From IMG/VR virus record IMGVR_UViG_3300045988_058662: a stretch of 36,726 nt of DNA, one strand, 5' to 3'. Below the pieces are notes generated by a model, which saw only the letters and a program-made list of their open reading frames with translations, had not been told where the DNA came from and ran no database searches. Positions 3,118 through 36,726 of this stretch are shown piece after piece. Within the stretch, counting starts at the first letter, position 1, and every line of letters begins with the position of its first letter. This DNA is from a virus. Position numbers and translations under genes: made by a program.

Positions 3118-3915
3118 TTATTTTTTGACTGTACCTACGTATATTTTGCCGCCAACAGACACGGACACCTGTAGCACGTCCGGCAGCTCCGTCGGCGCCG
3201 TGCTGTGTGCCTGTGCAAACCGCTGTATGGCCGCAACGGTGTTTTTGCCCGCTATGCCGTCCGCGTCCCCCGCGTCATAGCCCAGAGCGTTAAGGGCGGT
3301 CTGTAAGGCTTTGATGTCGTCCCCCCGCATCATAGGGCTGGTCAGCTCGATTATCCGGGGCGCGGCGGGTACTTCCTGTTCCGGCTCGTCCTCCTTCGCA
3401 GCGCCGGAGATTATGTCCCAGCGCCCGTACTCGTTCCAGTAGGCGGGGCCGGAAGCGTTTATCCCCCGGAGCACAACGCCGTCATCGCGGCCCTTGGATT
3501 CAATCACCTTATCGTTGCCGACATATACGCCTACATGGTAGATGTATTTGTACGTTCCGCCGCCGTCCTTATTCTTGTCGCGATACCTAAATACCAGGTC
3601 GCCGGGCTGAAGCTCGTCCCGGTGTATCCGCTTGCTCTTGGAGTACATTGTCCGGCTGTTTACCCTGCCGGAAAGCCCTTTTGCCATTAAAAATCCGCAT
3701 ATAAGGCCGGAGCAGTCAAAGGCGTACAGCGGGCATTTCCCGGCCTTTTGCATGTACCTTATGGCCCGCTCCGCGTTGGTGCTCGATGTCTCCTTATTTC
3801 GTATCCATTTTTCGGGGTCGCTCATGTCGGTAAGGCACTGCCCCCTCGCGCCCCAAACGTATGCGTCCCCGAGGTGCTCGCCGAGGTACGCTAAAAACTG
3901 TTGTATTAAGGTCAT
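3118..3915 (-). CDS. Endolysin: NlpC/P60 cysteine peptidase with a PG_binding_1 domain
   Basis: YVWGARGQ, catalytic-Cys motif FDCSGLICGF and His motif HVGVYVG. The C-terminal sequence GDDIKALQTALNALGYDAGDADGIAGKNTVAAIQRFQ-like is a peptidoglycan-binding repeat. Confidence 0.9.
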   Translation of the reverse strand: MTLIQQFLAYLGEHLGDAYVWGARGQCLTDMSDPEKWIRNKETSSTNAERAIRYMQKAGKCPLYAFDCSGLICGFLMAKGLSGRVNSRTMYSKSKRIHRDELQPGDLVFRYRDKNKDGGGTYKYIYHVGVYVGNDKVIESKGRDDGVVLRGINASGPAYWNEYGRWDIISGAAKEDEPEQEVPAAPRIIELTSPMMRGDDIKALQTALNALGYDAGDADGIAGKNTVAAIQRFAQAHSTAPTELPDVLQVSVSVGGKIYVGTVKK

Positions 3916-4466
3916 CTGCGTTTACCCGCCACAAAGAGGCCGAGGCCTATCAGGGAGAGGGAGACGGCATAGGCTATGATAGACACGTCGCCGGTCTTGG
4001 GGATCACCACGGGATTTTTTGCAATGGGCTGTTCGGCGGGCTGTGCGGCGTTAAAATAATAAGTCTTGCTGACAGTCCTGTTTTTCTGCATGGCGTTGTA
4101 GAGTTCTTCTGCCGTGGTGGCGTTGTCGTAGGCCTTGTCCTTGACGGTTATACGGAGGGCGGCGGGCTGGTCGGTAACTATGCCGCTCAGGTAATATGTG
4201 CCAGCCTCCAATCTCATGTCGTTTGCGTCCAGCTTTACGCCGTCCAGCTCCACAATAAGCTCCATATCGGTCAGGTCGTAAAAACGGGGTATGCCCAGGT
4301 CAACCTTGAGTAGGAAAAGCTCATTGTTGACGTAGGTTTTGGATACCGCCTTGCCGGTCTGGTAGTCCAGCGCGGTTATATCCAGAGTTACGGGGTCTGC
4401 GGCGTAGGCTATGGTGCAAAGGCACAGCATGAGCATTACCGCGAGGATACAAGTGAGTTTCTTCAT
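3912..4466 (-). CDS. Secreted, sortase-anchored (LPXTG-type IPKTG) surface protein
   Basis: N-terminal signal peptide MKKLTCILAVMLMLCLCTIAYA. C-terminus is IPKTGD, then a hydrophobic stretch, then GKRR. Its stop overlaps the endolysin ATG (ATGA). Confidence 0.75.
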   Translation of the reverse strand: MKKLTCILAVMLMLCLCTIAYAADPVTLDITALDYQTGKAVSKTYVNNELFLLKVDLGIPRFYDLTDMELIVELDGVKLDANDMRLEAGTYYLSGIVTDQPAALRITVKDKAYDNATTAEELYNAMQKNRTVSKTYYFNAAQPAEQPIAKNPVVIPKTGDVSIIAYAVSLSLIGLGLFVAGKRR

Positions 4467-4483
4467 AATGTTTTCCTTTCTTT

Positions 4484-4738
4484 TTAGAGTTTTATGCAGC
4501 GGTTCTCGAACTTCTTATATGTATCGAGGTACACTTCGTTCTTGTCACCGTTGTAAGTGACCTCATAATACATACCATCGGGGAGTGTGGTGGATACAAG
4601 TGCCTTCCAATTCTGGAGGGTCTTGCATTGCCAAACAACATAGGTATCAGTCATGTTGATTGCTATGCCGTCCGTCTTGTCGAGGTGCTCGTTTACATAA
4701 TCCCTCACGATTTCACGAGCCTTGAGTGTGTAGTCCAT
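4484..4738 (-). CDS. Conserved small phage protein (84 aa)
   Basis: The ORF follows a terminator and has its own RBS. The motif LQNWKALVST...YYEVTYNGDKNEVYLD is recalled from Firmicutes phage proteins of unknown function. Confidence 0.65.
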   Translation of the reverse strand: MDYTLKAREIVRDYVNEHLDKTDGIAINMTDTYVVWQCKTLQNWKALVSTTLPDGMYYEVTYNGDKNEVYLDTYKKFENRCIKL

Positions 4739-4776
4739 TTTGTTTTTTTCCTTTCTTTTTTTGTTTTTTTGATTAT

Positions 4777-4798
4777 GAAAAAAGAGCCGTGCGGCTCC
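4777..4798 (-). terminator. Intrinsic terminator after the tail/fibre operon
   Basis: Minus strand reads GGAGCCG-CA-CGGCTC followed by TTTTTTC, immediately after the stop at 4799. Confidence 0.65.
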
Positions 4799-5209
4799 TT
4801 ATTCCTGAAGTTCCCATCCCTGCGGGTATGCGTCTGGGGTGTAGACGTTGGAAGCTATGAGGCTTTTGTATATCGCACCGTTCCACCAGCCAAGCTCATC
4901 AAGTGCAAATGCCTCGGCTGCTGAGATTACGTCAGGGATAACCCGAACACCATCCTTATAGTTTATCTTCACCCATAGATTAGGTGCATGGTCGGGGTCG
5001 TTGGCCTCAGTATCCCATAGGTCTACGGTGGCCTGTTTGAGCCAGCCGTTCCAGTTGATACGGGTTCCGGCTTTTATGAGACTACCACTCTGTTTTAAGG
5101 TTGGATAGAGGTCTACGCAACCGCTTGCGTCCTTATCAGGTACGGCGGGCAGTGCCTTCTCAAGTTGCGCCCGCCATACTCTTGCTTCTTCTGCCGTGCG
5201 TACTATCAT
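4799..5209 (-). CDS. Hypothetical Trp-rich protein (136 aa)
   Basis: The ORF start overlaps the upstream stop (ATGA-type junction at 5206-5209). No recognisable motif. Confidence 0.6.
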   Translation of the reverse strand: MIVRTAEEARVWRAQLEKALPAVPDKDASGCVDLYPTLKQSGSLIKAGTRINWNGWLKQATVDLWDTEANDPDHAPNLWVKINYKDGVRVIPDVISAAEAFALDELGWWNGAIYKSLIASNVYTPDAYPQGWELQE

Positions 5210-6939: not shown

Positions 6940-9344
6940 GCACTTACAACCTCCTGCACTGCCCACACACCATCAAACACATCAAATTCATACGCTTTAG
7001 ATGCTTCAATGGTAGGGGCCGAGCCCATAAATGTGCCACTAAATGACACTGATACGCTGCTTCCCGTAGAAAACATGCCGTGCGCCCAGCCGGAGGCGGG
7101 CGGGGTAAACACGTATGTACCCACAGGAGAGGATACGTTATATATGGTGTTTGCCGTCAGCGCCGCGCCGCTGGCGGGGAGGGAGGAAGCTATAACAGGC
7201 GGGGTCAGGTAGTCCACACCGCCCGCGGCCTGCGCCACTTTGCCGCCTGCGCCTTTGAGCAGGCCGTTAATGTTGGTCGCGGTGTCGGCGGTTATCTCGT
7301 TAGGGCCAGCGGGGCCCTGTTCGCCCTGTGCGCCCGTATCGCCCTTCGCCCCGGTTTCGCCCTGCGGGCCTTTGATGCTGACGCTTGCGGGGTTATCCAG
7401 TCCGCCGTTGTTGCTCCATGAGATTATGCCCTCAGCAGATACCGAGGGGGTAAAGTATGGGCCGGTGTCGCCCTTGTCGCCGGGTTTGCCCTTTGCTCCG
7501 GGGTCGCCCTTGGAGCCTTGTATACCCTGCGGGCCTTGCTCGCCCGTGTCGCCCTTCGCGCCGGGGTCGCCCTTGTCTCCTTTTTCGCCCTGCGGGATTC
7601 CGAACTCAAAATCAAATACCTTTGCGGTGTCCGCGCCGCTTGCCGTTACCTTTACGGTGGCGGCGGTTCCGGCAGTGAGGGTGTTTGCCGTAGCGGTAGG
7701 TGTGCCAAACCCTGCGGCTGTGCCGGGGTCGCCCTTTGCGCCGGGGGTTCCCTGCGGGCCGGGGTCACCCTTGGGGCCTTGCTCGCCTTGTATGCCCTGC
7801 AAGCCCTGTATGCCCTGTTCGCCCTGCTCTCCTGCGGGGCCTTGCTCACCTGCGGGGCCGCGCTCGCCCTGCGGGCCTTTGATGTTGACGGGGTCGGGGT
7901 TGGCGAGGTCGCCGTTGTTTGTCCAGCTCAGCACGCCCTCGGCGGATACCGCCGGTGTGTAGTACGGACCGGTGTCGCCCTTGGCTCCGGCTGCGCCGGG
8001 GTCGCCTTTTGCGCCCTGCTCTCCCTGTATGCCCTGCTCACCCTGTATACCCTGCAAGCCCTGTGGGCCTTCGGGGCCTTGGATGCCTTGTTCGCCCTGT
8101 ATGCCCTGTTCACCCTGCGGGCCTCTGATGTTGGTTTCAGGGGGATTGTTCAGGCCGCCGTTGTTGCTCCACGATATAACGCCCTCGGCGGATACCGAGG
8201 GGGTAAAGTACGGGCCGGTGTCGCCCTTAGCTCCGGCTGCGCCGGGGTCGCCCTTTGCGCCGGGGTCGCCCTTGGGGCCGGGGTCGCCTTTAGGGCCAGT
8301 GGGGCCTTGCTCACCTTTTGCGCCCTGCAAGGGGCCGTTGTTCACCCACTTGGAATTTACACCGTCCCAGATATATATATCATACGGTTCGCCCGCGCCC
8401 ACGCCGTAAGCGTCACCAGCGGAGGGGTTAGATACTCCGGCTTGTAATGCGGAGAGGGAAGCGTAATAGCCCAACACGGCAAATCCTTCGCCCGTATCGC
8501 CCTTGGCTCCCTGTGCGCCCTGTGGCCCCCGTATATTGACTGTGGCGGGGTTATCCAGCCCACCGTCATTACTCCACGATAAATCGCCGTCAGCGGTCAC
8601 AGAGGGCGTATAGTGCGCTCCTGCGGGGCCTCGTTCGCCCGTGGCTCCCGTATCCCCCTTGGGGCCCGTTCCTCCCTTGTCTCCGGGGTCGCCTTTAGGC
8701 CCTTGGATACCCTGTTCACCTTTGGGGCCAGTGGGGCCCGTTTCTCCTGCGGCTCCTGTGTCGCCTTTATCGCCTTTCTTGCCTTCGGGGCCTTGGGGGC
8801 CGACGGGGCCGGGAGTGCCGTCCTGCCACGCCGAGCCGCTTGCGGTTCGAGTGAGTACCTGCCCCGGCGTTCCGCCCGCCGGCAATCCCCCGCCGCCGGA
8901 TCCGCCGCCGCTCTGCGCCGCCTCGTTTATGGCCGCTACAAGGGTATTCTTGTCCGCGGTGGTTAGCTCGTCCATGTCGCCGATTTTTGCAAGGAGTTGT
9001 TCGTATTGCGTCAGGGATATATCCGGCAGTTCGCCTTCCGTGGCCCCGAAGGGCAGCACGTCAAACTGCACCGGGCCAGCCGTTACGCGGCTGTCGCCCT
9101 TTATGCCGGAGAGCTTCAGCTCCCAGCGCCCCGCAGTAAGGTTCACGCCTTGCGCCGCGGTGATTTCGCCGTCCGTCAGCTCTGCGGTTATGGCTTTATT
9201 TCCGCAGACAAAATAGGCAGTGATAGCACGGCCTGCCCAGTCAGGATCAAACGTAAATTTAGCAGTCAGATAGTTTATGCTGTCCGCCACCACAAGCGGT
9301 GTACGCAGCATGAGCCTCTGCCCGCGTATAATGCCTGTAAGCAT
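6936..9344 (-). CDS. Collagen-like tail fibre / baseplate upper protein (BppU-like N-terminus)
   Basis: 802 aa. Long Gly-X-Y tracts ([16 protein letters not shown]...) are interrupted by four copies of the module Y[FY]TP[SA]VSAEG.(I/L)SW.NNG.L.NP. The globular N-terminus resembles BppU_N (from memory). Confidence 0.9.
7302..8816 (-). repeat. Collagen triplet tracts plus four roughly 90-nt module repeats
   Basis: Gly-X-Y coding periodicity is visible throughout. The modules lie at 8526..8615, 8121..8210, 7875..7964 and 7368..7457. Their DNA shares blocks such as TCCA(C/T)GA...GCGGATACCGAGGGGGTAAAGTA. Confidence 0.85.
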
Positions 9345-29782: not shown

Positions 29783-30437
29783 CTTTTTACGAGCAATAGC
29801 TTTCCATCTCCGTCAATCTGTAGCTGCCGTCATTATCCGGTATGTCGTCAATCTGTACCGATTGAGGGATTAAAAAAGTGGGGACAACACCAAACGTGAA
29901 AGACGAGTCGAAGTCGTCGGCGGAGCCGTCCATGTAGACGACCCAAGCGTCGCCAGAGGAGTACCGCGAGGAAAGCCACCAGAGAGCAGCCACGCCGTTG
30001 AGGGTCTTTATTCGGCTATTCCTTCCCGTGAATATAGGCCATGCGAAACCTTCGTCCACTCCGTGGTTGTCGCCGCAGCCTACCATGGTCATTGTGGGGG
30101 CAAACACTTTACGAGTTATATCCTCGGCGCCGCTGCCGTTATATAGCAGGATCGTGCTGGGGATAATCAGCTCCTTAAGCTCGTCGGGGTAGCTGTCGTA
30201 TATTTCGGTCATGCGTTTGTCCAGGTCGGAATCGGCGTACTCCGTGCTGTCGCCAAACCAGCACCGGCTGTGTATGTCTTTGCGGATAAGCCCTACGGTG
30301 CCTACGTCAAAATTATTGAGGCAACCGAGGGTGTAGTCAGCCAGCTCGTAGGTTCCATCCTCGCGGCGCTCGGGGATTTTGATGTTGGTTCCGAATGGTA
30401 GTTCTCCTAATTTCATTTTTTATGTCCTCCCTATGAT
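29783..30437 (-). repeat. Direct repeat A (about 655 bp), covering paralog A and its RBS
   Basis: Aligned by eye to 31465..32114. Both ends are near-identical (CTTTTTACGAGCAATAGCTTTCCA...TTCTCCTAATTTCATTTTT). One region is divergent. Confidence 0.85.
29787..30416 (-). CDS. Stand-alone DUF6273-like protein, paralog A (209 aa)
   Basis: ITRKVFAPTMTMVGCG, LWWLSS and GVVPTFLIPQSVQIDD...DGSYRL. No signal peptide. Homologous to domains in both tail genes. Confidence 0.8.
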   Translation of the reverse strand: MKLGELPFGTNIKIPERREDGTYELADYTLGCLNNFDVGTVGLIRKDIHSRCWFGDSTEYADSDLDKRMTEIYDSYPDELKELIIPSTILLYNGSGAEDITRKVFAPTMTMVGCGDNHGVDEGFAWPIFTGRNSRIKTLNGVAALWWLSSRYSSGDAWVVYMDGSADDFDSSFTFGVVPTFLIPQSVQIDDIPDNDGSYRLTEMESYCS

Positions 30438-30929: not shown

Positions 30930-31151
30930 TCAATCCCTCCCTGTCGCAATGTGTAAGTTAATGTTTTGATTGTTGGCGTCAACGCATATCAACGTTGCGT
31001 CCATGAGTTTGCCTACATTTTGGGCGCACATTTTAGGCAGTATTTCTTCGCGGTTATAGCTGCCCAGCAGTTCCCCGCCTGGGGCATGGTAGAGTTTTAC
31101 CCGCTGGCTCTTGAGCAGCGCCAGCATGGGGAGGATATCCTTTACTTGCAT
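30930..31151 (-). CDS. Hypothetical protein (73 aa)
   Basis: The ORF overlaps the 3' end of the HNH gene by 10 nt. Confidence 0.5.
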   Translation of the reverse strand: MQVKDILPMLALLKSQRVKLYHAPGGELLGSYNREEILPKMCAQNVGKLMDATLICVDANNQNINLHIATGRD

Positions 31152-31462
31152 ATGTAATCACTCCTCCACTTGCGGTATCTCAGCTTTTCCTCGTCCCAGT
31201 CCGGGTATTTGGCCATAAGGTAGGCGCGAAGGGCCTTTTTCAGTTCCGGCCTGCGCTCGGAATTGTCGTAATCCCTGTGGCACTCAGGGCATAGGGTGAC
31301 GATGTTCTCTTCTATTCCCTTCCCGTTATGGGAGCGAGGGATGAAATGCGCGTCAGGGTTGCCCGGTCTGCCGCACAGGACGCAGCAATGATGATCCCTC
31401 TCCCATACCCACCGTTTGACTTTGAGAGGTATGTCGCATGCTTTTGTGCGCTTGCTTTTCAT
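31142..31462 (-). CDS. HNH endonuclease (second in the window)
   Basis: CVLCGRPGNPDAHFIPRSHNGKGIEENIVTLCPECH. Confidence 0.85.
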   Translation of the reverse strand: MKSKRTKACDIPLKVKRWVWERDHHCCVLCGRPGNPDAHFIPRSHNGKGIEENIVTLCPECHRDYDNSERRPELKKALRAYLMAKYPDWDEEKLRYRKWRSDYICK

Positions 31463-31464
31463 GG

Positions 31465-32114
31465 CTTTTTACGAGCAATAGCTTTCCAGCTCTGTCAATC
31501 TGTAACTGCCGTCATTATCCGGTGTGTCGTCAATCTGTACCGATTGAGGGATTACAAAAGCGGGGACAACACCAAGCGTGAGCGACGAGAGGCCGAAGTA
31601 GTAGGCGGAGCCGCCCGTGCCGACGAACCACACGACGTCAGAGGAGAACTGCGAGGAAAGCCACCAGACATTAGCCGAGCCGTTAAAGGTCTTTTCGCGG
31701 CTATTTCTTCCCGTGAATATAGGCCATGTGAATCCCTCGTCCACTCCTTCATTTTCGCCGCAGCCTACCATGGTCAATGTGGGGGCAAACACTTTTCGGG
31801 TTATATCCTCGGCGCCGCTGCCGTTATATAACGGGATCGTGCTGGGAATAATCAGCTCTTTAAGTTCGTCGGGGTAGCTGTTGTATATTTCCGTCATGCG
31901 TTTGTCCAGGTCTGATCCGGCATACTCCGTGCTATCGCCGAACCGGCACAGGCCGTGTATGTCCTTGCGGATAAACGCAGCTACACCCGCGCCGAAAAAG
32001 CCCAGCGTGTAGTCCGCCAGCTCGTAGGTTCCACCCTCGCGGCGCTCGGGAATTTTGATGTTTGCCCCGAATGTCAGTTCTCCTAATTTCATTTTTTTGC
32101 GTCCTCCTTATGAT
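31465..32114 (-). repeat. Direct repeat B (about 650 bp), covering paralog B and its RBS
   Basis: This is the partner of 29783..30437. Confidence 0.85.
31469..32092 (-). CDS. Stand-alone DUF6273-like protein, paralog B (207 aa)
   Basis: ITRKVFAPTLTMVGCG, VWWLSS and GVVPAFVIPQSVQIDD...DGSYRL. Confidence 0.8.
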   Translation of the reverse strand: MKLGELTFGANIKIPERREGGTYELADYTLGFFGAGVAAFIRKDIHGLCRFGDSTEYAGSDLDKRMTEIYNSYPDELKELIIPSTIPLYNGSGAEDITRKVFAPTLTMVGCGENEGVDEGFTWPIFTGRNSREKTFNGSANVWWLSSQFSSDVVWFVGTGGSAYYFGLSSLTLGVVPAFVIPQSVQIDDTPDNDGSYRLTELESYCS

Positions 32115-32401
32115 TTGATACCCCGGGATCTTGGGCCATCGGCAAAGGCCCTCCTTCCCGGACGCACCGGGCCTGAATCCTGTTTATACTCGCCCGGTCG
32201 AGTTGCTAACGTGCTGTTGTGGGTTCGTTAGGTCATTCGCATCACCTCCGGCGAAAGGAGACAGCAGAGGGCGGTGAGCAGAAGCAGCGTTTTGTCGGAC
32301 ATATCAGGTGGTCTGTGTATATCAAAAAGGAGATTATAAACTCTGCCCATCGGACACCGGCCCAAGATGCCGCCCTCTGCTCTCCCCTTTCGTACGGGGA
32401 G
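32093..32401 (-). other. Non-coding, GC-rich, highly self-complementary segment: candidate structured RNA or leader
   Basis: No RBS-supported ORF. Perfect long-range pairings are 32128-32137 with 32359-32368 (10 bp) and 32263-32274 with 32370-32381 (12 bp). Local hairpins lie at 32133-32151, 32157-32171, 32166-32198 and 32383-32400. Confidence 0.3.
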
Positions 32402-32734
32402 CTACTGCACTTTGTATTTGCAATCGTCGTATTTATGGCGGCGGGCAGCCTTTACCCTGGGCTGCTCTGCCGTCTTGTCCTCTACCATGGAGGCCATGCT
32501 CCGCACCAGTATGAGAGGGGCGTGGCCGTCGGCGGCGGTCGCCATGAGGCGCCCATCCCTACACATGGCGCGTATAGTGCCGGGGTCTACGTTGATGATC
32601 TCGGATGCCCGTTTGGTGGTGACATACTCGCCGTGCATCTTCACCATGCGCTCTTCCAGCGCCTCAACACTGTTTATGCGCTCGTCCACGGCGGCGGTTA
32701 TCATGTCCCGCAGCAGCTTGTCAAAGTTATCCAT
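32402..32734 (-). CDS. HTH DNA-binding protein (excisionase/MerR-like)
   Basis: VTTKRASEIINVDPGTIRAMCRDGRL. RBS is GAAAGGAAA. Confidence 0.65.
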   Translation of the reverse strand: MDNFDKLLRDMITAAVDERINSVEALEERMVKMHGEYVTTKRASEIINVDPGTIRAMCRDGRLMATAADGHAPLILVRSMASMVEDKTAEQPRVKAARRHKYDDCKYKVQ

Positions 32735-32750
32735 GGCAGTTTCCTTTCTG

Positions 32751-32759
32751 TGGTATAAT
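32751..32759 (+). promoter_or_regulatory. Extended -10 promoter element TGGTATAAT
   Basis: A perfect TGnTATAAT lies 21 nt upstream of the plus-strand ATG at 32780. Confidence 0.45.
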
Positions 32760-32779
32760 CAAAAGTAAAAAGGGGTTTT

Positions 32780-33058
32780 ATGCTGAGTTTTGCTTCTTTC
32801 CGTATTCTTGTTTACGCTTATTTTCATCGGGGCTTCGGCGTATCCGATGTTGACCGTATCGTGGGCAGAAAGTTCACACAGGGCTGTATAAACCAGTTGT
32901 ATAACAAGAACTTGATATCCGTCAGGTACATCGCCGAAGGCCGTAACGGGCTTTTATTGCTCATAACGCAAGACGGTCGCGGTTTCCTGCAAAAATCACT
33001 TGTCGGTGCGCTGGTTACAGCAGCTTCTCTATCGCTTGCAGTATTAGCCCTAATATGA
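32780..33058 (+). CDS. Plus-strand moron-like gene: winged-helix-like N-terminus with a C-terminal TM anchor (92 aa)
   Basis: It has its own extended -10 and an AAGGGG RBS. NKNLISVRYIAEGRNGLLLLITQDGRGFLQ looks like a wHTH wing. The C-terminus LVGALVTAASLSLAVLALI is hydrophobic. The 3' end overlaps a minus-strand ORF. Confidence 0.45.
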   Translation: MLSFASFRILVYAYFHRGFGVSDVDRIVGRKFTQGCINQLYNKNLISVRYIAEGRNGLLLLITQDGRGFLQKSLVGALVTAASLSLAVLALI

Positions 33059-33179
33059 CGAGCGCTCCGAGCACGAATATTTGTGTTTGCGTCCGCCTGA
33101 CCTCTTCATAAATGCTTAGCAGTTTCTTGTCTGAGTTCTGCTCGTCCCATTTGCACGTCCACTTGTCTCTAAACATCAT
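33015..33179 (-). CDS. Possible 54-aa membrane protein below the ORF-track cutoff
   Basis: RBS GGAGGTGAGCGGC precedes ATGATG. Sequence is MMFRDKWTCKWDEQNSDKKLLSIYEEVRRTQTQIFVLGALVILGLILQAIEKLL. Confidence 0.4.
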   Translation of the reverse strand: MMFRDKWTCKWDEQNSDKKLLSIYEEVRRTQTQIFVLGALVILGLILQAIEKLL

Positions 33180-33213
33180 GCCGCTCACCTCCTATGCGGT
33201 TTGTTCGTTCACT

Positions 33214-33230
33214 CTTACGTTTTGCGTAAG
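33214..33230. promoter_or_regulatory. Operator-like palindrome CTTACGTTTTGCGTAAG (distal copy)
   Basis: Six-bp inverted arms CTTACG/CGTAAG with a 5-bp spacer. Near-identical to 33461..33477. It directly abuts the cro-like stop codon. Confidence 0.55.
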
Positions 33231-33443
33231 TTAGTTTGCAAAAAAAATGTCCGTTGCTTCTTGTTTGCTGTCACATACGCATTCGGCAATTTTGACCATC
33301 ACATCATACGGTATTTTACTCGGTATCGATAGGTATTTCGCCAGAGTATTTCGGTCTATCCCCAGCGTATTCGCTAATGATGATATCGTATAATTTTTTT
33401 CGGTCATTTTCCCCCTAAGTTTGGGCACATTGATTTCGTACAA
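33231..33443 (-). CDS. Cro-like HTH regulator
   Basis: YTISSLANTLGIDRNTLAKYLS. Divergent from the cI-like gene. TTG start with RBS GGAGGCGGAAAGG. Confidence 0.8.
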   Translation of the reverse strand: MYEINVPKLRGKMTEKNYTISSLANTLGIDRNTLAKYLSIPSKIPYDVMVKIAECVCDSKQEATDIFFAN

Positions 33444-33460
33444 CCTTTCCGCCTCCGTTT

Positions 33461-33477
33461 CTTACGTATTGCGTAAG
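33461..33477. promoter_or_regulatory. Operator-like palindrome CTTACGTATTGCGTAAG (promoter-proximal copy)
   Basis: It lies 4 nt downstream of the candidate early -10 hexamer. Confidence 0.55.
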
Positions 33478-33480
33478 TTT

Positions 33481-33509
33481 ATAATAGCCTTGTCGCGCCC
33501 AAAAGTCAA
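33481..33509 (-). promoter_or_regulatory. Candidate early (PR-like) promoter: TTGACT, 17 nt, TATTAT
   Basis: Minus strand reads TTGACTTTTGGGCGCGACAAGGCTATTAT. It points into the cro-like gene. Confidence 0.5.
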
Positions 33510-33550
33510 TACGTGGCGCGAAAGTTTTTTTGCGTTTTGAGTAATTTTTA

Positions 33551-33579
33551 TTGCATTTCAAAATAAAGAAGTGTATTAT
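33551..33579 (+). promoter_or_regulatory. Candidate repressor promoter: TTGCAT, 17 nt, TATTAT
   Basis: Plus strand reads TTGCATTTCAAAATAAAGAAGTGTATTAT, 24 nt before the cI-like ATG. A CTTACG half-site lies at 33583-33588. Confidence 0.5.
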
Positions 33580-33602
33580 AGGCTTACGAGGAGGATAACA
33601 AA

Positions 33603-33920
33603 ATGATTTTAGAAGAGAGAATGAGGGATCGCAGGAAAGAATTGGATTTAACCCTCGCCGATATTGCAAAGGCAGTTGGTGTCTCAGAGGCCACCGTGCA
33701 GCGATGGGAAAGCGGCAAGATTAAGAATTTGAGGTATGAACGTATTCCCGCCCTTGCAGTCGCTTTGCATACTACGCCGGCCTATCTAATGGGCTGGGAA
33801 GATATCCCGGAAGAAACCACCTCCAGTAAAGCTATGCTAAAGGCGGTCGTTGACGGCATGACCGAAGAACAAGCCGCTCTGTTTCTGGCGACTTGGCAAG
33901 CAGCAAAAATGCCAAAGTGA
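33603..33920 (+). CDS. cI-like XRE-family repressor (105 aa, no S24 peptidase domain)
   Basis: LTLADIAKAVGVSEATVQRWESGKIKNL. RBS is GAGGAGGA. Confidence 0.85.
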   Translation: MILEERMRDRRKELDLTLADIAKAVGVSEATVQRWESGKIKNLRYERIPALAVALHTTPAYLMGWEDIPEETTSSKAMLKAVVDGMTEEQAALFLATWQAAKMPK

Positions 33921-33975
33921 TTTCCTCTATCGTCATTCCATCTATGATTTCCTTTAATTCTTCTTTTTTCGTCAT
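33832..33975 (-). CDS. Possible 47-aa ORF antisense to the cI 3' end
   Basis: Strong RBS GGAGGTGGAAACAA before the ATG, and an upstream extended -10 (TGCTATCAT, 34009-34017). Only the first 19 codons lie outside cI. Confidence 0.25.
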   Translation of the reverse strand: MTKKEELKEIIDGMTIEEITLAFLLLAKSPETERLVLRSCRQRPPLA

Positions 33976-34281
33976 TTGTTTCCACCTCCAAACATTTGTT
34001 CTGTTTTGATGATAGCATTTTTCGTATAAAAGAAAAGGGGTGATTTTATTGAAAGTACTATAAACGGGACTGCGCTCAACGATGTTGCACAAATCGTGCC
34101 TCGGATTTGCCTTTAACCGGCAGAGGGAGCGGGAGCCGCTCACCTCCGCCTCGGCCAGAACGGCGGAGAAGCTTCGCGGGAGCCGCCCCGGCCTGAATTA
34201 AGCATATCTCCTTCCCTTGGTTTTTTAAAGCCACAAATAGTATCCTTTCAGGGTAAAAATTGTTTAAACGGGGGTAAAATA

Positions 34282-34794
34282 ATGGACTTTGAGCGATTAC
34301 AGGAACTTGTGCGGCAATCCGGCAAGACACAGCAGGAGATCGCGGACGAATGCGGGCTGTCGCTCGCTACTGTCAAGAAGGTGCTTCACGGACAAACATC
34401 AAATCCAGGCGTAGATACGCTGATAAGGATATTAAATACTATTGGCAAAAGTCTGCGGGATATAGATTCTGACTTTGCGGGAGTTCCGCAAGGATATAGT
34501 AAAGAGGATTTATACGAAGAACTTATCGCCATTAACAAGGAGCGTATAAACAATCTGGTAGCCGAAGGGCGGCGTAAAAACATTCAATTGTCCCTGTTGT
34601 CAGGTGTTTCCGTATTATTGATGGTGGTTTTAAGCGGAATATTTATCATAGATAGCAGATATCCGAGCATGGGGCTGATACGCCCCGAAACTAAGCATTT
34701 ATCGACAATAGCAGGGGGTATAATGCTGGTTTTCGTGATATTCGCAGGCTATCTCATATACATCAGCATAAAAGAATGGGAAAGGTTAAAGTAG
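34282..34794 (+). CDS. Membrane-anchored XRE-family HTH protein (170 aa)
   Basis: N-terminal KTQQEIADECGLSLATVKKVLHGQTSNP. Two C-terminal TM helices (LLSGVSVLLMVVLSGIFII and IAGGIMLVFVIFAGYLIYI). Confidence 0.8.
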   Translation: MDFERLQELVRQSGKTQQEIADECGLSLATVKKVLHGQTSNPGVDTLIRILNTIGKSLRDIDSDFAGVPQGYSKEDLYEELIAINKERINNLVAEGRRKNIQLSLLSGVSVLLMVVLSGIFIIDSRYPSMGLIRPETKHLSTIAGGIMLVFVIFAGYLIYISIKEWERLK

Positions 34795-34807
34795 GAGGGT
34801 GTGGTCA

Positions 34808-35443
34808 ATGGGTATGATACATCAGTGCTCTCAGTGTGGGAAAAAGGGGTTGTTCTTGCCGCTCAACAACCTTGGGCACTGTGAGGAATGTATAAAAAAG
34901 AATAAGGCGGAACGAGACGAGCTCAAGGCAGAGCAGGATGAGTGCGAAGCGAAACAGATCAAATGCGAGGCGGCGCAGGACGTGCCGCTCATCGCCGAAA
35001 CGGAAATTACAGACGACGAGGCAGAGAAAAAGGAGGAAGTTGAAAATATGGAAAATACCGGTGTTCGCAAACCGAATGTATCTGAAAAGGACTGGCTTAC
35101 TACGCTGCTTTTATGTATATTCCTGGGTGGCTTGGGTATACATCGGTTTTACGTCAACAAGCCGCTCACGGCTGTTCTTTGGTTGCTGACTGCCGGCTGC
35201 TTTGGTGTTGGTGTTATCATAGATATATGCAGTATAGCCAGCGGCAGTTTTACGGACGGCGATGGGGCTGTGATCCTCTCAGAAAAGCAGCGGGACAGGG
35301 CACACGGCTCTGGTGTGCAGGACGCGTCGCCCGTTGATGCCGTCGAGCAGCTCCGCAAGCTGGGCGAATTGCGGGATAGTGGTATCCTGAGTGATGAGGA
35401 GTTTGCGGCGAAGAAGTCCGTATTGCTCGGCAAGATAAAATAA
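34808..35443 (+). CDS. Zn-ribbon, acidic linker, TM2 domain and SHOCT domain membrane protein
   Basis: CSQCG...CEEC. TM2 signature FLGGLGIHRFYVNKPLTAVLWLLT...IIDICSI. C-terminal SHOCT sequence VEQLRKLGELRDSGILSDEEFAAKKSVLLGKI. The ATG at 34808 lies 8 nt after AGGAGGG. Confidence 0.85.
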   Translation: MGMIHQCSQCGKKGLFLPLNNLGHCEECIKKNKAERDELKAEQDECEAKQIKCEAAQDVPLIAETEITDDEAEKKEEVENMENTGVRKPNVSEKDWLTTLLLCIFLGGLGIHRFYVNKPLTAVLWLLTAGCFGVGVIIDICSIASGSFTDGDGAVILSEKQRDRAHGSGVQDASPVDAVEQLRKLGELRDSGILSDEEFAAKKSVLLGKIK

Positions 35444-35446
35444 AAA

Positions 35447-35479
35447 ATCCCCCGGCTGTTGGCGCAGCGCAAGGGGGAT
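35447..35479. terminator. GC hairpin between the TM2/SHOCT gene and int, with the U-tract only on the minus strand
   Basis: ATCCCCC...GGGGGAT (7 bp) with an inner GCTG/CAGC pairing. AAAATAAAAAA precedes it on the plus strand, which gives a T-run after the hairpin on the minus strand. Confidence 0.45.
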
Positions 35480-35533
35480 CAGAGGTGGGTGCTTCTCCGC
35501 CTCCGATTTTAGCATAATGGGAGGTTTTTGTAA

Positions 35534-36646
35534 ATGGCAAGGCAAAGCGACGGGCGGTATAGGGCTAAAGTAACCGTCGGCAAGGATATGAATGGCGGCA
35601 GCGTGATAAAATATGTATCCGGGCGCACAAAGAAGGAGCTGGAAGCCGCGAAGGAGGCTATCCGGCAGGAATATATCACCGGCAGGAATACGCCGGAAAA
35701 CGCCATGTTCGGGGCATACGCCATTCAATGGTATAACACATACAAAAAGCCGAATATAGGAGCATCGGCGCAGAGCAGTTATAGGACCGCGCTGAACGTG
35801 CATATACTCCCCATTCTGGGGAACAAGCGATTGACGGCAATATCCGCAATGGACTTGCAGGAGCTTATCAACTCAAAGGCGGATACCTGCGCAACGATAA
35901 TTAAGAATGTACATCATGTTCTGAAAAGTATATTTAAGCGGGCATATATGGAAGGGATAATCCCCCGCGATATAACCGTAGGATTAGAAAAACCGTCCAA
36001 GGCCAAAAAGAGCCGCCGCGCCCTGACAGAGGCGGAAGAGGCCGCCGCGAAGGTGCTGATGCAGGAGGAAAACGGCCTGCTGGTGGCGCTGCTTTATTAT
36101 ACCGGCATGAGGCTCGGCGAAGCCCTCGGCCTGCAATGGGAGTGCGTGGATTTCAAAAAGAAGGTCATACACGTCCGGCAGCAGGTCAATTTAGGGCTGG
36201 GCAAAATCACGCCGCCGAAAACGAAGGAGAGCATAAGGGATATACCCCTGCCTGACGAGCTGGCAGAGATGCTTGTGCGGGGATTCCCACAGGCGTTTGT
36301 TTTTCCGTCTCCGAGTGGATCATATTATAGGAACACACCCGTTAATCGGCTATGGATAGATTTAATGCGGCGTATAATCGAAATAGACCCGACAATTGAG
36401 ACGCGGGGAAACGGCGCCTCTGTCCTCACACCGCACTACTTCCGGCACAATTACGCCTCCATACTCTATAATGCCGGCGTTGACGTGCTTTCCGCGCAGA
36501 AATTTCTCGGCCATGCCAACGCAAAGGTAACGCTTGAAATTTATTCACACCTTTCAAGGGAGAAAGAGGACGCAAGCGCGGAAACCGTCAGAAGCGTTTT
36601 TCAAAAAAGGTTGCCAGAAAGTTGCCAGAGCAAAACCACAAAATGA
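35534..36646 (+). CDS. int: Tyrosine recombinase / phage integrase
   Basis: TGMRLGEALGL (Arg), HYFRHNYAS (H-x-x-R) and LGHANAKVTLEIYSH (catalytic Tyr region). RBS is GGGAGG. The last 19 nt lie inside the terminal repeat. Confidence 0.92.
   Translation: MARQSDGRYRAKVTVGKDMNGGSVIKYVSGRTKKELEAAKEAIRQEYITGRNTPENAMFGAYAIQWYNTYKKPNIGASAQSSYRTALNVHILPILGNKRLTAISAMDLQELINSKADTCATIIKNVHHVLKSIFKRAYMEGIIPRDITVGLEKPSKAKKSRRALTEAEEAAAKVLMQEENGLLVALLYYTGMRLGEALGLQWECVDFKKKVIHVRQQVNLGLGKITPPKTKESIRDIPLPDELAEMLVRGFPQAFVFPSPSGSYYRNTPVNRLWIDLMRRIIEIDPTIETRGNGASVLTPHYFRHNYASILYNAGVDVLSAQKFLGHANAKVTLEIYSHLSREKEDASAETVRSVFQKRLPESCQSKTTK
36605..36628. repeat. Tandem GTTGCCAG pair (AAAAGGTTGCCAGAAAGTTGCCAG), partner of 198..221
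   Basis: It lies inside the integrase 3' end, encoding KRLPESCQ. Confidence 0.85.
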
Positions 36647-36726
36647 GCGCAAGCAATCAAAAAAGCCCTAAATACCTAAGAAAAACGCCCGTGCAACACG
36701 AGCGTTTTTGATGTTTGGTATCCGGC
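36628..36726. repeat. Terminal direct repeat, right copy (identical to 1..99)
   Basis: Checked base by base. Confidence 0.97.

Follow-up and report, generated by a model that had tools for sequence, protein, structure and literature searches.

In a viral genome of 36,726 nucleotides (IMG/VR record IMGVR_UViG_3300045988_058662; this whole stretch is the window of what follows), two adjacent genes, here called g1 (34282..34794) and g2 (34808..35443), lie 13 nt apart on the lysogeny strand between a repressor gene and the gene of a tyrosine integrase, where an earlier, sequence-only reading had placed them and where a check of the open reading frames (ORFs) and the Pfam matches confirm them. The explanation that we favor, and to which we would give an even chance of being correct, is that g1 is a conserved regulator kept close to the integrase gene, and that it stands beside a hotspot for cargo which in this genome holds g2, an exchangeable gene derived from a host. 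To judge from the sequences compared, g1 is a member of a family of small membrane-anchored XRE proteins that is undescribed in the libraries and papers searched, and g1 and g2 are neighbors with different histories, not an obligate two-component system. Together with the phage recombinase gene and between one and four small, divergently encoded proteins of two helices, g1 would make up a conserved module.

Synteny of g1 and occupancy of the slot behind it

In every informative locus retrieved (loci are numbered with the prefix L), the gene of the g1 family is co-oriented with the gene of a tyrosine or serine recombinase and lies 0–1.1 kb upstream of it. The distant relatives of g1, with 24–27% identity, occupy the corresponding place in other temperate phages: their genes are on the lysogeny strand, past the repressor, and the recombinase gene comes immediately downstream. 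The g1-like gene of L062, an integrated prophage in which the integrase is followed by host genes, is directly upstream of a tyrosine integrase, that of L068 is directly upstream of a serine recombinase, and in L065 a gene for a 348-residue Mrr_cat protein stands between the g1-like gene and the recombinase; in the subclade of these three, all 18 informative IMG/VR loci have a co-oriented tyrosine or serine recombinase gene 0–1.1 kb downstream, with an RNase_T gene intervening in 4 of them. Three further relatives (L089–91) lie 5–210 bp upstream of tyrosine integrases.

The genes around g1 have been exchanged repeatedly, while g1 itself stays 94–100% identical: the cI/cro pair has been swapped at least three times and belongs to at least three unrelated types, and in L006–9, L034 and L045 unrelated repressors replace the 105-residue repressor of the window with g1 kept. 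Across these near-identical g1 loci the integrase is about 82% identical, or is a serine recombinase instead (L034), and g2 is 63–99% identical. L034 carries, at 7256..8524, a serine recombinase of 422 residues in the place of the tyrosine integrase, with g1 unchanged and the region of g1 and g2 near-identical; the same leader is found upstream of this serine recombinase, and therefore the integrase module was swapped downstream of that leader.

The gene that follows g1 varies as well. In the g1 clade, which comprises about 43 contigs, g2 follows a g1 of 94–100% identity in 28 contigs of IMG/VR and in 9 others, as one of two alleles, of 211 residues (about 98% identical to the copy of the window) or 197 residues (about 63–72%), which are about 66% identical to each other, and one identical g1 allele occurs ten times with each of them. 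Both genes are also present in L014, at 74% identity for g1 and 61% for g2. In L001–4 (g1 at 76–77% identity) a 306-residue RNase_T-BRCT exonuclease occupies the place of g2, in L005 (57–58%) the slot is empty and the integrase comes directly after g1, in L083–86 an RNase_T gene stands in the slot after the g1-like gene, and in some 30 loci of more distant g1 relatives no TM2 gene was found. Because both the occupants of the slot and the alleles of g2 vary around a nearly unchanged g1, g1 would be the conserved element and g2 its exchangeable neighbor; the related loci compared give no sign of co-adaptation between the two, nor do they co-occur as a unit and covary, as would a pair of the RexAB kind. 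Co-occurrence across related prophages had been set by the sequence-only reading as the check that could refute its idea of a sensor paired with an effector, and the result is divided, with both genes in about 38 contigs and no g2 in L001–4, L005 and the 30 or so distant loci. What stands of that idea is the position in the lysogeny module and the presence of defense-like nucleases in the slot of the relatives; what is not supported is a dedicated pairing, as g1 exists in relatives without g2.

The alternative occupants of the slot are nucleases of several kinds. The exonucleases match in PADLOC the DEDDh family and the single-gene candidate PDC-S48 (1e-38 to 1e-43), and the Mrr-type nucleases match PDC-S02, the nuclease domain of ZorD, and LmuA. 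In the Roseburia phage Jekyll (L019, LR596902), a gene annotated as 'putative restriction endonuclease' (4007..4849), located between an ImmR/ImmA pair and the integrase, encodes a fusion of zinc ribbon, TM2 and Mrr_cat, that is, a membrane-anchored nuclease. The recombinase gene has a leader whose sequence stays conserved with any of g2, RNase_T or g1 in front of it and with recombinases of either class, tyrosine or serine, behind it; cargo would therefore have been inserted between the stop codon of g1 and this leader. It is reasonable to see in this slot a hotspot for cargo or defense, which would suggest a defense-type role for g2 by its position only. The place beside the repressor had already been proposed as a slot of the cargo or exclusion type, and this proposal is supported both by the precedent of ltp (PMC3952083) and by the nuclease genes of the relatives.

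The proteins encoded by g1 and g2

The product of g1 had been described as an XRE-type helix-turn-helix (HTH) protein with two C-terminal transmembrane (TM) helices, a description borne out by Pfam, hydropathy and an AlphaFold model. Residues 7–60 match HTH_3 (PF01381; E=3.8e-10, 40.1 bits against a cutoff of 23), and hydrophobic segments extend over about 99–127 and 137–166. The model (predicted local distance difference test score, 73) consists of a five-helix HTH at 3–61, a flexible stretch, a continuous helix at 74–126 that joins the linker to the first TM helix (TM1), a loop at 127–137 (about 12–15 residues external) and a helix at 138–169. Both the Pfam score, above its threshold, and the five-helix fold place the protein among the XRE/Cro-C1 HTH proteins; in Foldseek the folds closest to this HTH are those of the DNA-binding repressors SinR, CapH, DdrO and HigA2, and the search of the PDB with g1 returned HTH domains only. 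Because positive charges precede TM1 and there is no signal peptide, we infer that the HTH is cytoplasmic. Outside the HTH, conservation in g1 is highest in TM1 and the external loop. In PADLOC-DB 2.0, g1 gave only weak matches of the HTH region (E at least 0.0035) to capH and to PDC-M64C/M69A, which do not place it in a defense family, and the g1-like proteins of L062 and L065 gave no match; PHROGs and NCBIfam returned only generic repressor matches.

The family to which g1 belongs is sparse at close range and broad at long range. A word-indexed search with g1 found only 11 close relatives. When 1.84 billion representative proteins were searched with a profile, no more than 5 representatives came out below 1e-30; behind them was a tail of many XRE proteins of 125–200 residues with a TM helix, whose match covers the HTH and everything up to and including the first TM helix. 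Directly after this helix the family has the motif [ILFY]-D-x-x-[NH]-[PG]-x-x-G-[WYFL]-[IVF]-[RQ], which in g1 reads IDSRYPSMGLIR and at which many of the proteins terminate (...GYIRY). Among 147 relatives from the profile search, a TM segment was found in 89 and the strict form of the motif in 51. The residues D124 and G131 are invariant, and T16, Q18, D22, Y78, E79, K99, D124, P128 and G131 are at least 90% conserved, among them the Y78-E79 pair in the linker and the lysine K99 before the TM helix. g1 itself has all the features by which the proposed family is delimited, namely the HTH, the Y-E linker, the TM helix, the motif, and a co-oriented recombinase gene within about 1.1 kb downstream. 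Pfam recognizes the HTH alone in these proteins, their C-terminal part being covered by none of its models. In cultured phage records, tblastn with g1 gave one match at the level of the HTH and no close homologue; the GTDB representative genomes, scanned with the g1 profile, gave HTH-level matches only, with no close homologue, integrated copy or host, and a search of IMG/VR with the query P0150 alone found no match. In the literature on TM2 in phages and on membrane-anchored XRE proteins in prophages, nothing functional was found.

In g2, the order of a CxxC..CxxC zinc ribbon, an acidic linker, a TM2 domain and, at the C-terminus, a SHOCT domain, as it had been read from the sequence, agrees with the Pfam matches and with the conserved cysteines. 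The start of the gene is best put at the ATG of 34808, which has a GGAGG 9 nt before it, overlapping the g1 stop codon; the upstream GTG at 34799 would leave no spacing for a ribosome-binding site (RBS). The zinc-ribbon cysteines, C7-x2-C10 and C25-x2-C28, reach 90% conservation or more across the family; the linker (residues 31–92) has a net charge of -9 and is modeled as a charged helix at 26–56 and a disordered acidic stretch at 58–90. Membership in TM2 (PF05154, residues 93–140; E=4.9e-19, 68.7 bits against a cutoff of 27.9) and in SHOCT (PF09851, residues 180–207; E=3.4e-10, 39.8 bits against 27) is clear, with model helices at 94–114 and 119–145 in the former, whose GxxGxHRFY core is invariant in the alignment, and at 175–190 and 196–210 in the latter. 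Both ends of the protein are predicted to be cytoplasmic, with only about 4 residues outside. No PADLOC-DB 2.0 family matched g2, and Foldseek against BFVD gave no match below 1e-3.

We know of no function for the TM2 family in bacteria. In a putative prophage from the gut, genes with this domain border a locus for salt tolerance (PMC3861447), and domains like SHOCT have been proposed as anchors of the inner leaflet, associated with envelope-stress systems (PMC11237479). The earlier view of g2 as a small oligomerizing membrane protein is not sustained, as SHOCT is not an established oligomerization domain: the idea was examined in the paper that describes it, with a negative outcome (PMC3581485). 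The homologues of g2 number 949, of which the closer ones are phage alleles; beyond these are Clostridia proteins of 155–175 residues, called "NINE protein" or "TM2 domain-containing membrane protein YozV" in their sources, in which the order of zinc ribbon, TM2 and SHOCT is kept and the linker is short. The architecture is common in cellular Clostridia proteins, which corrects its earlier description, and the two cellular relatives that were looked up are in ordinary chromosomal loci next to YqeC, with no g1-like neighbor. The phage copies have some 45–60 residues more, the charged helix and disordered acidic stretch, between the zinc ribbon and TM2. Because the cellular homologues have the same layout, a short linker and non-phage chromosomal loci, g2 looks like a captured cellular gene to which a charged and acidic linker has been added.

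Companion elements and layout of the locus

The lysogeny module, on the plus strand, forms the right end of the window, and the remaining genes are mostly phage genes of the minus strand; in related contigs of about 36 kb, holin and endolysin genes are found beyond the integrase. The features of the region are collected in Table 1. The sequence-only reading had noted the lack of an ImmA-type protease partner, and indeed neither g1, g2 and the repressor nor any of the ten other ORFs nearest to them has a Peptidase_M78 domain, such as a module of the ImmR/ImmA type would have. Comparison of the DNA of 33200..36726 with 50,697 phage records gave no match. A scan for promoters and terminators found sites no more numerous than in shuffled sequence, and no plus-strand promoter for g1.

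Table 1. Features in and around the lysogeny module, in positions of the window
Feature	Position	Strand	Remarks
HTH_17 (excisionase-type) candidate	32402..32734	lytic strand	
cro-like gene, 70 residues	33231..33443		divergent from the 105-residue repressor
XRE-type repressor (cI-like), 105 residues	33603..33920	+	HTH_3, E=7e-12; context gene in the exchangeable immunity region
Small ORF, 46 residues from the ATG at 33972	33832..33972	-	divergent from g1, antisense into the 3' end of the repressor gene
GC-rich two-stem structured element, candidate minus-strand RNA	34102..34213	-	also in L005, 4472..4585
11-nt inverted repeat, left copy GGCGGAGAAGC	34162..34172		flanks the cassette of g1 and cargo
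g1, membrane-anchored XRE protein, 170 residues	34282..34794	+	HTH, coiled coil and TM1, loop IDSRYPSMGLIR, second TM helix
g2, 211 residues	34808..35443	+	zinc ribbon, charged helix and acidic linker, TM2 hairpin, SHOCT
Conserved leader of the recombinase gene	35444..35533	+	hairpin 1, hairpin 2, integrase RBS
11-nt inverted repeat, right copy GCTTCTCCGCC	35491..35501		about 40 nt upstream of the integrase gene, within a terminator-like hairpin
Tyrosine integrase	35534..36646	+	Phage_integrase, E=7.8e-24; Phage_int_SAM_3, E=8.5e-10

About 300 bp upstream of g1 travel with it in all loci, at 89% identity or more in the close loci and at 71% in L001 and L014. Part of this company is a family of small ORFs encoding two-helix proteins of 34–50 residues, present in one to four copies divergent from the g1-like genes (L062, 4538..4894; L065, 4164..4848; L068, 4387..4858; L070, 4580..4851). 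For the ORF that begins at 33972, an extended -10-like TGnTATCAT, the RBS and the ATG are conserved across immunity types. A hidden Markov model (HMM) built from 13 of these ORFs recovered members on which it had not been trained, at the same position in L070, L014, L075 and L001 (E 5e-8 to 8e-5), and among 2786 ORFs only one other, a small ORF of L070 (3247–3387, E=0.002), scores comparably; Pfam gave no match to them. The idea that they could be SinI-like mimics of the C-terminal tail of the repressor was tried and rejected, as the resemblance is one seen by eye only, with the tail at E=8.9 in the HMM and no Pfam SinI match.

A second companion is the structured element, which accompanies g1 whatever the immunity type. 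RNAalifold gives it 5–7 compensatory pairs, and in its stem P2 there are three G.U pairs on the minus strand, which on the plus strand would be A.C mismatches and which are A-U in L001 and L014; because of this change from G.U to A-U, a minus-strand RNA is favored. Its covariance model matches the window (126 bits) and L005 (62.7 bits), both of them training members and both within the g1 clade; in the distant loci it finds nothing, and Rfam has no matching family. As to the 11-nt inverted repeat, each 11-mer occurs a single time in the window, and none of 200 shuffles reached a repeat of this length. It is kept in the 40-odd loci of the g1 clade that were scanned, of which L005 shares the 9-nt core only, and in L001–4 both copies have undergone a concerted change from CG to TA (L001-type variant, GGTAGAGAAGC). 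As a general feature of the g1 family the repeat was rejected, being absent from the distant loci, and no inverted isoform of the cassette was seen in at least 40 contigs. Finally, in the leader of the recombinase gene, hairpin 1 (A6-TCCCCC-N19-GGGGGA) is preceded by an A6 that makes it a terminator-like site of the minus strand, and hairpin 2 (GAGGTGG-8 nt-CCGCCTC, then GATTTTA) is terminator-like and may be an attenuator before the integrase gene; in L001 the stem of hairpin 2 has changed in a compensatory manner, as seen in the sequences themselves. These non-coding elements and the small ORFs point to a probable regulatory module around g1.

Other observations concern the surroundings. In L005, the interval between the repressor and g1 contains a 133-residue protein anchored by its N-terminus (3841..4242) and a 42-residue lipoprotein-like ORF (4358..4486, lipobox LLSGC), both with DGY repeats and both typical candidates for surface exclusion proteins. 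In the early region of the window there are two paralogous DUF6273 genes on the minus strand (29787..30416 and 31469..32092), accompanied by a gene for an HNH endonuclease (31142..31462), and just upstream of the second of them there is a full-length Pistol ribozyme (Rfam RF02679) at 32116..32203 on the minus strand (56.7 bits against a gathering score of 34.5, E=8e-9), the sole real match of an Rfam scan of 32000..36726, which found nothing in the region of the cassette.

Proposed mechanism, rival explanations and known systems

If we accept the explanation given at the outset, g1 would bind DNA as a dimer, as a regulator anchored on the cytoplasmic side of the membrane, and it would control the promoter region of the divergent small ORFs as well as its own operon, formed by g1, the cargo and the integrase gene. 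The membrane anchor and the short external motif, which is helix-breaking and lies at the outer end of TM1, would make this activity depend on a signal from the envelope, and regulated proteolysis of g1 could be a possible route, a speculation by analogy with other membrane-tethered regulators. g2, with both ends in the cytoplasm, would act alone, as an accessory protein expressed in the lysogen, and would most likely hinder superinfecting phages on the cytoplasmic side of the membrane. The analogies that suggest this role are those with the nuclease-type defense candidates in the slot of the relatives and with the fusion of zinc ribbon, TM2 and Mrr in Jekyll. A more daring possibility, which we hold to be doubtful, is that the whole family acts as a membrane-tethered switch, in which the XRE domain is kept at the membrane and the N-P/G motif is a substrate of proteolysis or a sensor of the envelope, so that release or inactivation would switch on the small proteins and the operon of g1, cargo and integrase. 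The events sensed could be the DNA entry of a superinfecting phage or cell-wall stress, the proteolysis would be regulated (intramembrane), and signals of the envelope would in this manner be coupled to prophage induction, excision or defense, with TM2-SHOCT, DEDDh exonuclease and Mrr nuclease as exchangeable effectors.

Several points weigh against a regulator beside a cargo slot. The contigs are metagenomic and many are possibly near-duplicates, and hence the counts overstate the number of independent lineages. In the close clade (g1 at 74% identity or more) g2 follows g1 in about 38 of 43 contigs, and a functional link is possible there. The PADLOC matches of the alternative cargo are to nuclease domains of candidate systems, not of validated ones, and a search for repeats in 33900..34300 gave no convincing operator. 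The DNA binding of g1, its target, the signal and the proteolysis are all things that we infer. Lastly, the strict adjacency of g1 to recombinase genes is also that of a site of exclusion genes in Gram-positive phages, and synteny alone cannot separate a regulator from an exclusion protein.

It is indeed conceivable, if unlikely, that g1 is itself a superinfection-exclusion protein that blocks the DNA entry of related phages, either by capturing the incoming DNA with its HTH or by binding an entry channel of the host with its external motif, g2 then being a second and independent exclusion protein. The slot between repressor and integrase is the classical site of exclusion genes in low-GC Gram-positive temperate phages, and the known ones are membrane-anchored (PMC3952083); the conservation of TM1 and the external loop would agree with this, as would the retention of g1 across heteroimmune relatives, that is, across phages that repressor immunity cannot exclude. 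However, g1 has no sequence similarity to the exclusion proteins described in PHROGs and PADLOC, g1 and g2 are mostly cytoplasmic (about 12–15 and about 4 residues outside), whereas Ltp is on the outer face of the membrane, and a canonical DNA-binding HTH throughout the family, together with the divergent small ORFs, looks more like a regulatory module. For g2 alone, a role in lysogenic conversion is unlikely, in which a gene derived from a host would serve a physiological end such as envelope stress or membrane homeostasis and none against phages. It would be in keeping with a large cellular family of the same architecture in housekeeping-type loci next to YqeC, with the predicted inner-leaflet anchoring and envelope-stress association of SHOCT-like domains (PMC11237479), and with the TM2 genes that flank the salt-tolerance locus of a putative gut prophage (PMC3861447), but the relatives have in this slot nuclease genes that resemble defense candidates, Jekyll fuses the zinc ribbon and TM2 to an Mrr nuclease, and the phage copy has gained a long charged and acidic linker that the cellular copies lack.

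That the two genes form a dedicated pair of sensor and membrane effector, Rex-like or abortive, in which g1 detects infection and g2 depolarizes or perforates the membrane, seems to us quite unlikely. Their adjacency at 13 nt on the lysogeny strand, their joint presence in about 38 contigs, including those with a swapped immunity region and a swapped type of integrase, and the precedent of a two-gene, prophage-encoded system with a membrane component in Butters gp30/gp31 (PMC7542560) speak for it, and the modular logic of sensors and effectors in defense systems would accommodate one conserved component whose nuclease or membrane partners can be exchanged. Yet g1 also occurs beside RNase_T-BRCT, or lacks a neighboring cargo gene, the recombinase gene comes directly after the g1-like gene in L062 and L068, no TM2 gene adjoins any distant relative of g1, one g1 allele goes with two g2 alleles that are about 66% identical, the more distant relatives of g2 are cellular and without a g1-like gene, and neither protein falls in a PADLOC family beyond generic HTH matches. 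Very improbable is a direct part of g1 in integration or excision, as a directionality or accessory factor or as a membrane tether of the recombination complex: the strict adjacency to recombinase genes of two unrelated classes and the inverted repeat with its concerted change, which flanks the cassette and reaches to about 40 nt upstream of the integrase gene, could be taken in this sense, but a single accessory protein for the mechanistically unrelated tyrosine and serine integrases is unlikely on general grounds, a separate excisionase-type HTH_17 candidate exists on the lytic strand, the repeat is absent from the distant loci, and the 40 or more contigs show no inverted cassette.

What is already known is that accessory membrane proteins occur between repressor and integrase (PMC3952083; Butters gp30/31). 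What the libraries and papers searched do not describe are the specific families, that is, the integrase-linked family of membrane-anchored XRE proteins and its motif, as well as the companion elements. If the favored explanation of g1 as an integrase-proximal regulator beside a cargo slot is true, widespread temperate phages, apparently of gut Clostridia, would carry an unrecognized conserved gene of the lysogeny module beside the integrase, part of their lysogeny control may be wired to the cell envelope, and the interval from g1 to the integrase leader would be a predictable hotspot that can be mined for accessory and anti-phage genes of gut phages, including the functionally orphan TM2 and SHOCT domains of bacteria. 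There would also be a gain for annotation: neither Pfam nor PADLOC nor the function labels of PHROGs account for the g1 family, for the motif that follows its TM helix or for the small ORFs divergent from g1.

Among known systems, Sie2009 of the lactococcal P335 phages is one example of superinfection exclusion from within the lysogeny module. Another is ltp, from phage TP-J34 of S. thermophilus; in temperate phages of low-GC Gram-positive bacteria, such genes are known from the lysogeny module (PMC3952083). g1 and g2 share with the ltp genes the location within this module, on the strand of the repressor, and position only; unlike Ltp, a lipoprotein of the outer membrane face (PMC3952083), they face the cytoplasm, show no sequence similarity to it and have neither signal peptide nor lipobox, both N-termini being soluble domains that precede the TM helices, and g1 has a canonical cytoplasmic DNA-binding HTH. 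With RexA/RexB of lambda and gp30/gp31 of mycobacteriophage Butters they have in common that two adjacent genes of the lysogen side encode at least one membrane protein (PMC7542560). Unlike in those pairs, to which there is no homology, both g1 and g2 are membrane proteins, they are non-obligate and their alleles assort freely.

ToxR and CadC have winged-helix domains of the OmpR type and sizeable periplasmic sensor domains, and RodZ, which binds MreB, combines an XRE-type HTH with a TM helix, as HTH_25 plus DUF4115. g1 resembles all three in its N-terminal cytoplasmic HTH, in a single membrane-spanning helix and in a small external part, but it matches neither HTH_25 nor DUF4115 above threshold, its external motif has only 12–15 residues, and it is encoded by a phage next to an integrase gene. 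g2, for its part, is a clear member of the TM2 family (PF05154; COG2314 YozV; 'NINE protein' of NCBI) and of SHOCT (PF09851), with the cellular order of domains, and differs from the cellular TM2-SHOCT proteins in the extra linker of about 45–60 residues. Phage Jekyll differs from the locus of the window in having a Peptidase_M78 (ImmA) gene. Defense hotspots of prophages and satellites are places of variable cargo between conserved core genes. As in these, exchangeable genes are enclosed by conserved flanks, here g1 and the leader of the integrase gene, and several of the enclosed genes match nucleases of defense candidates; unlike other hotspots, this one would be inside the lysogeny operon of siphophage-like genomes of the Clostridia type, and its conserved flank is a membrane-anchored HTH protein.

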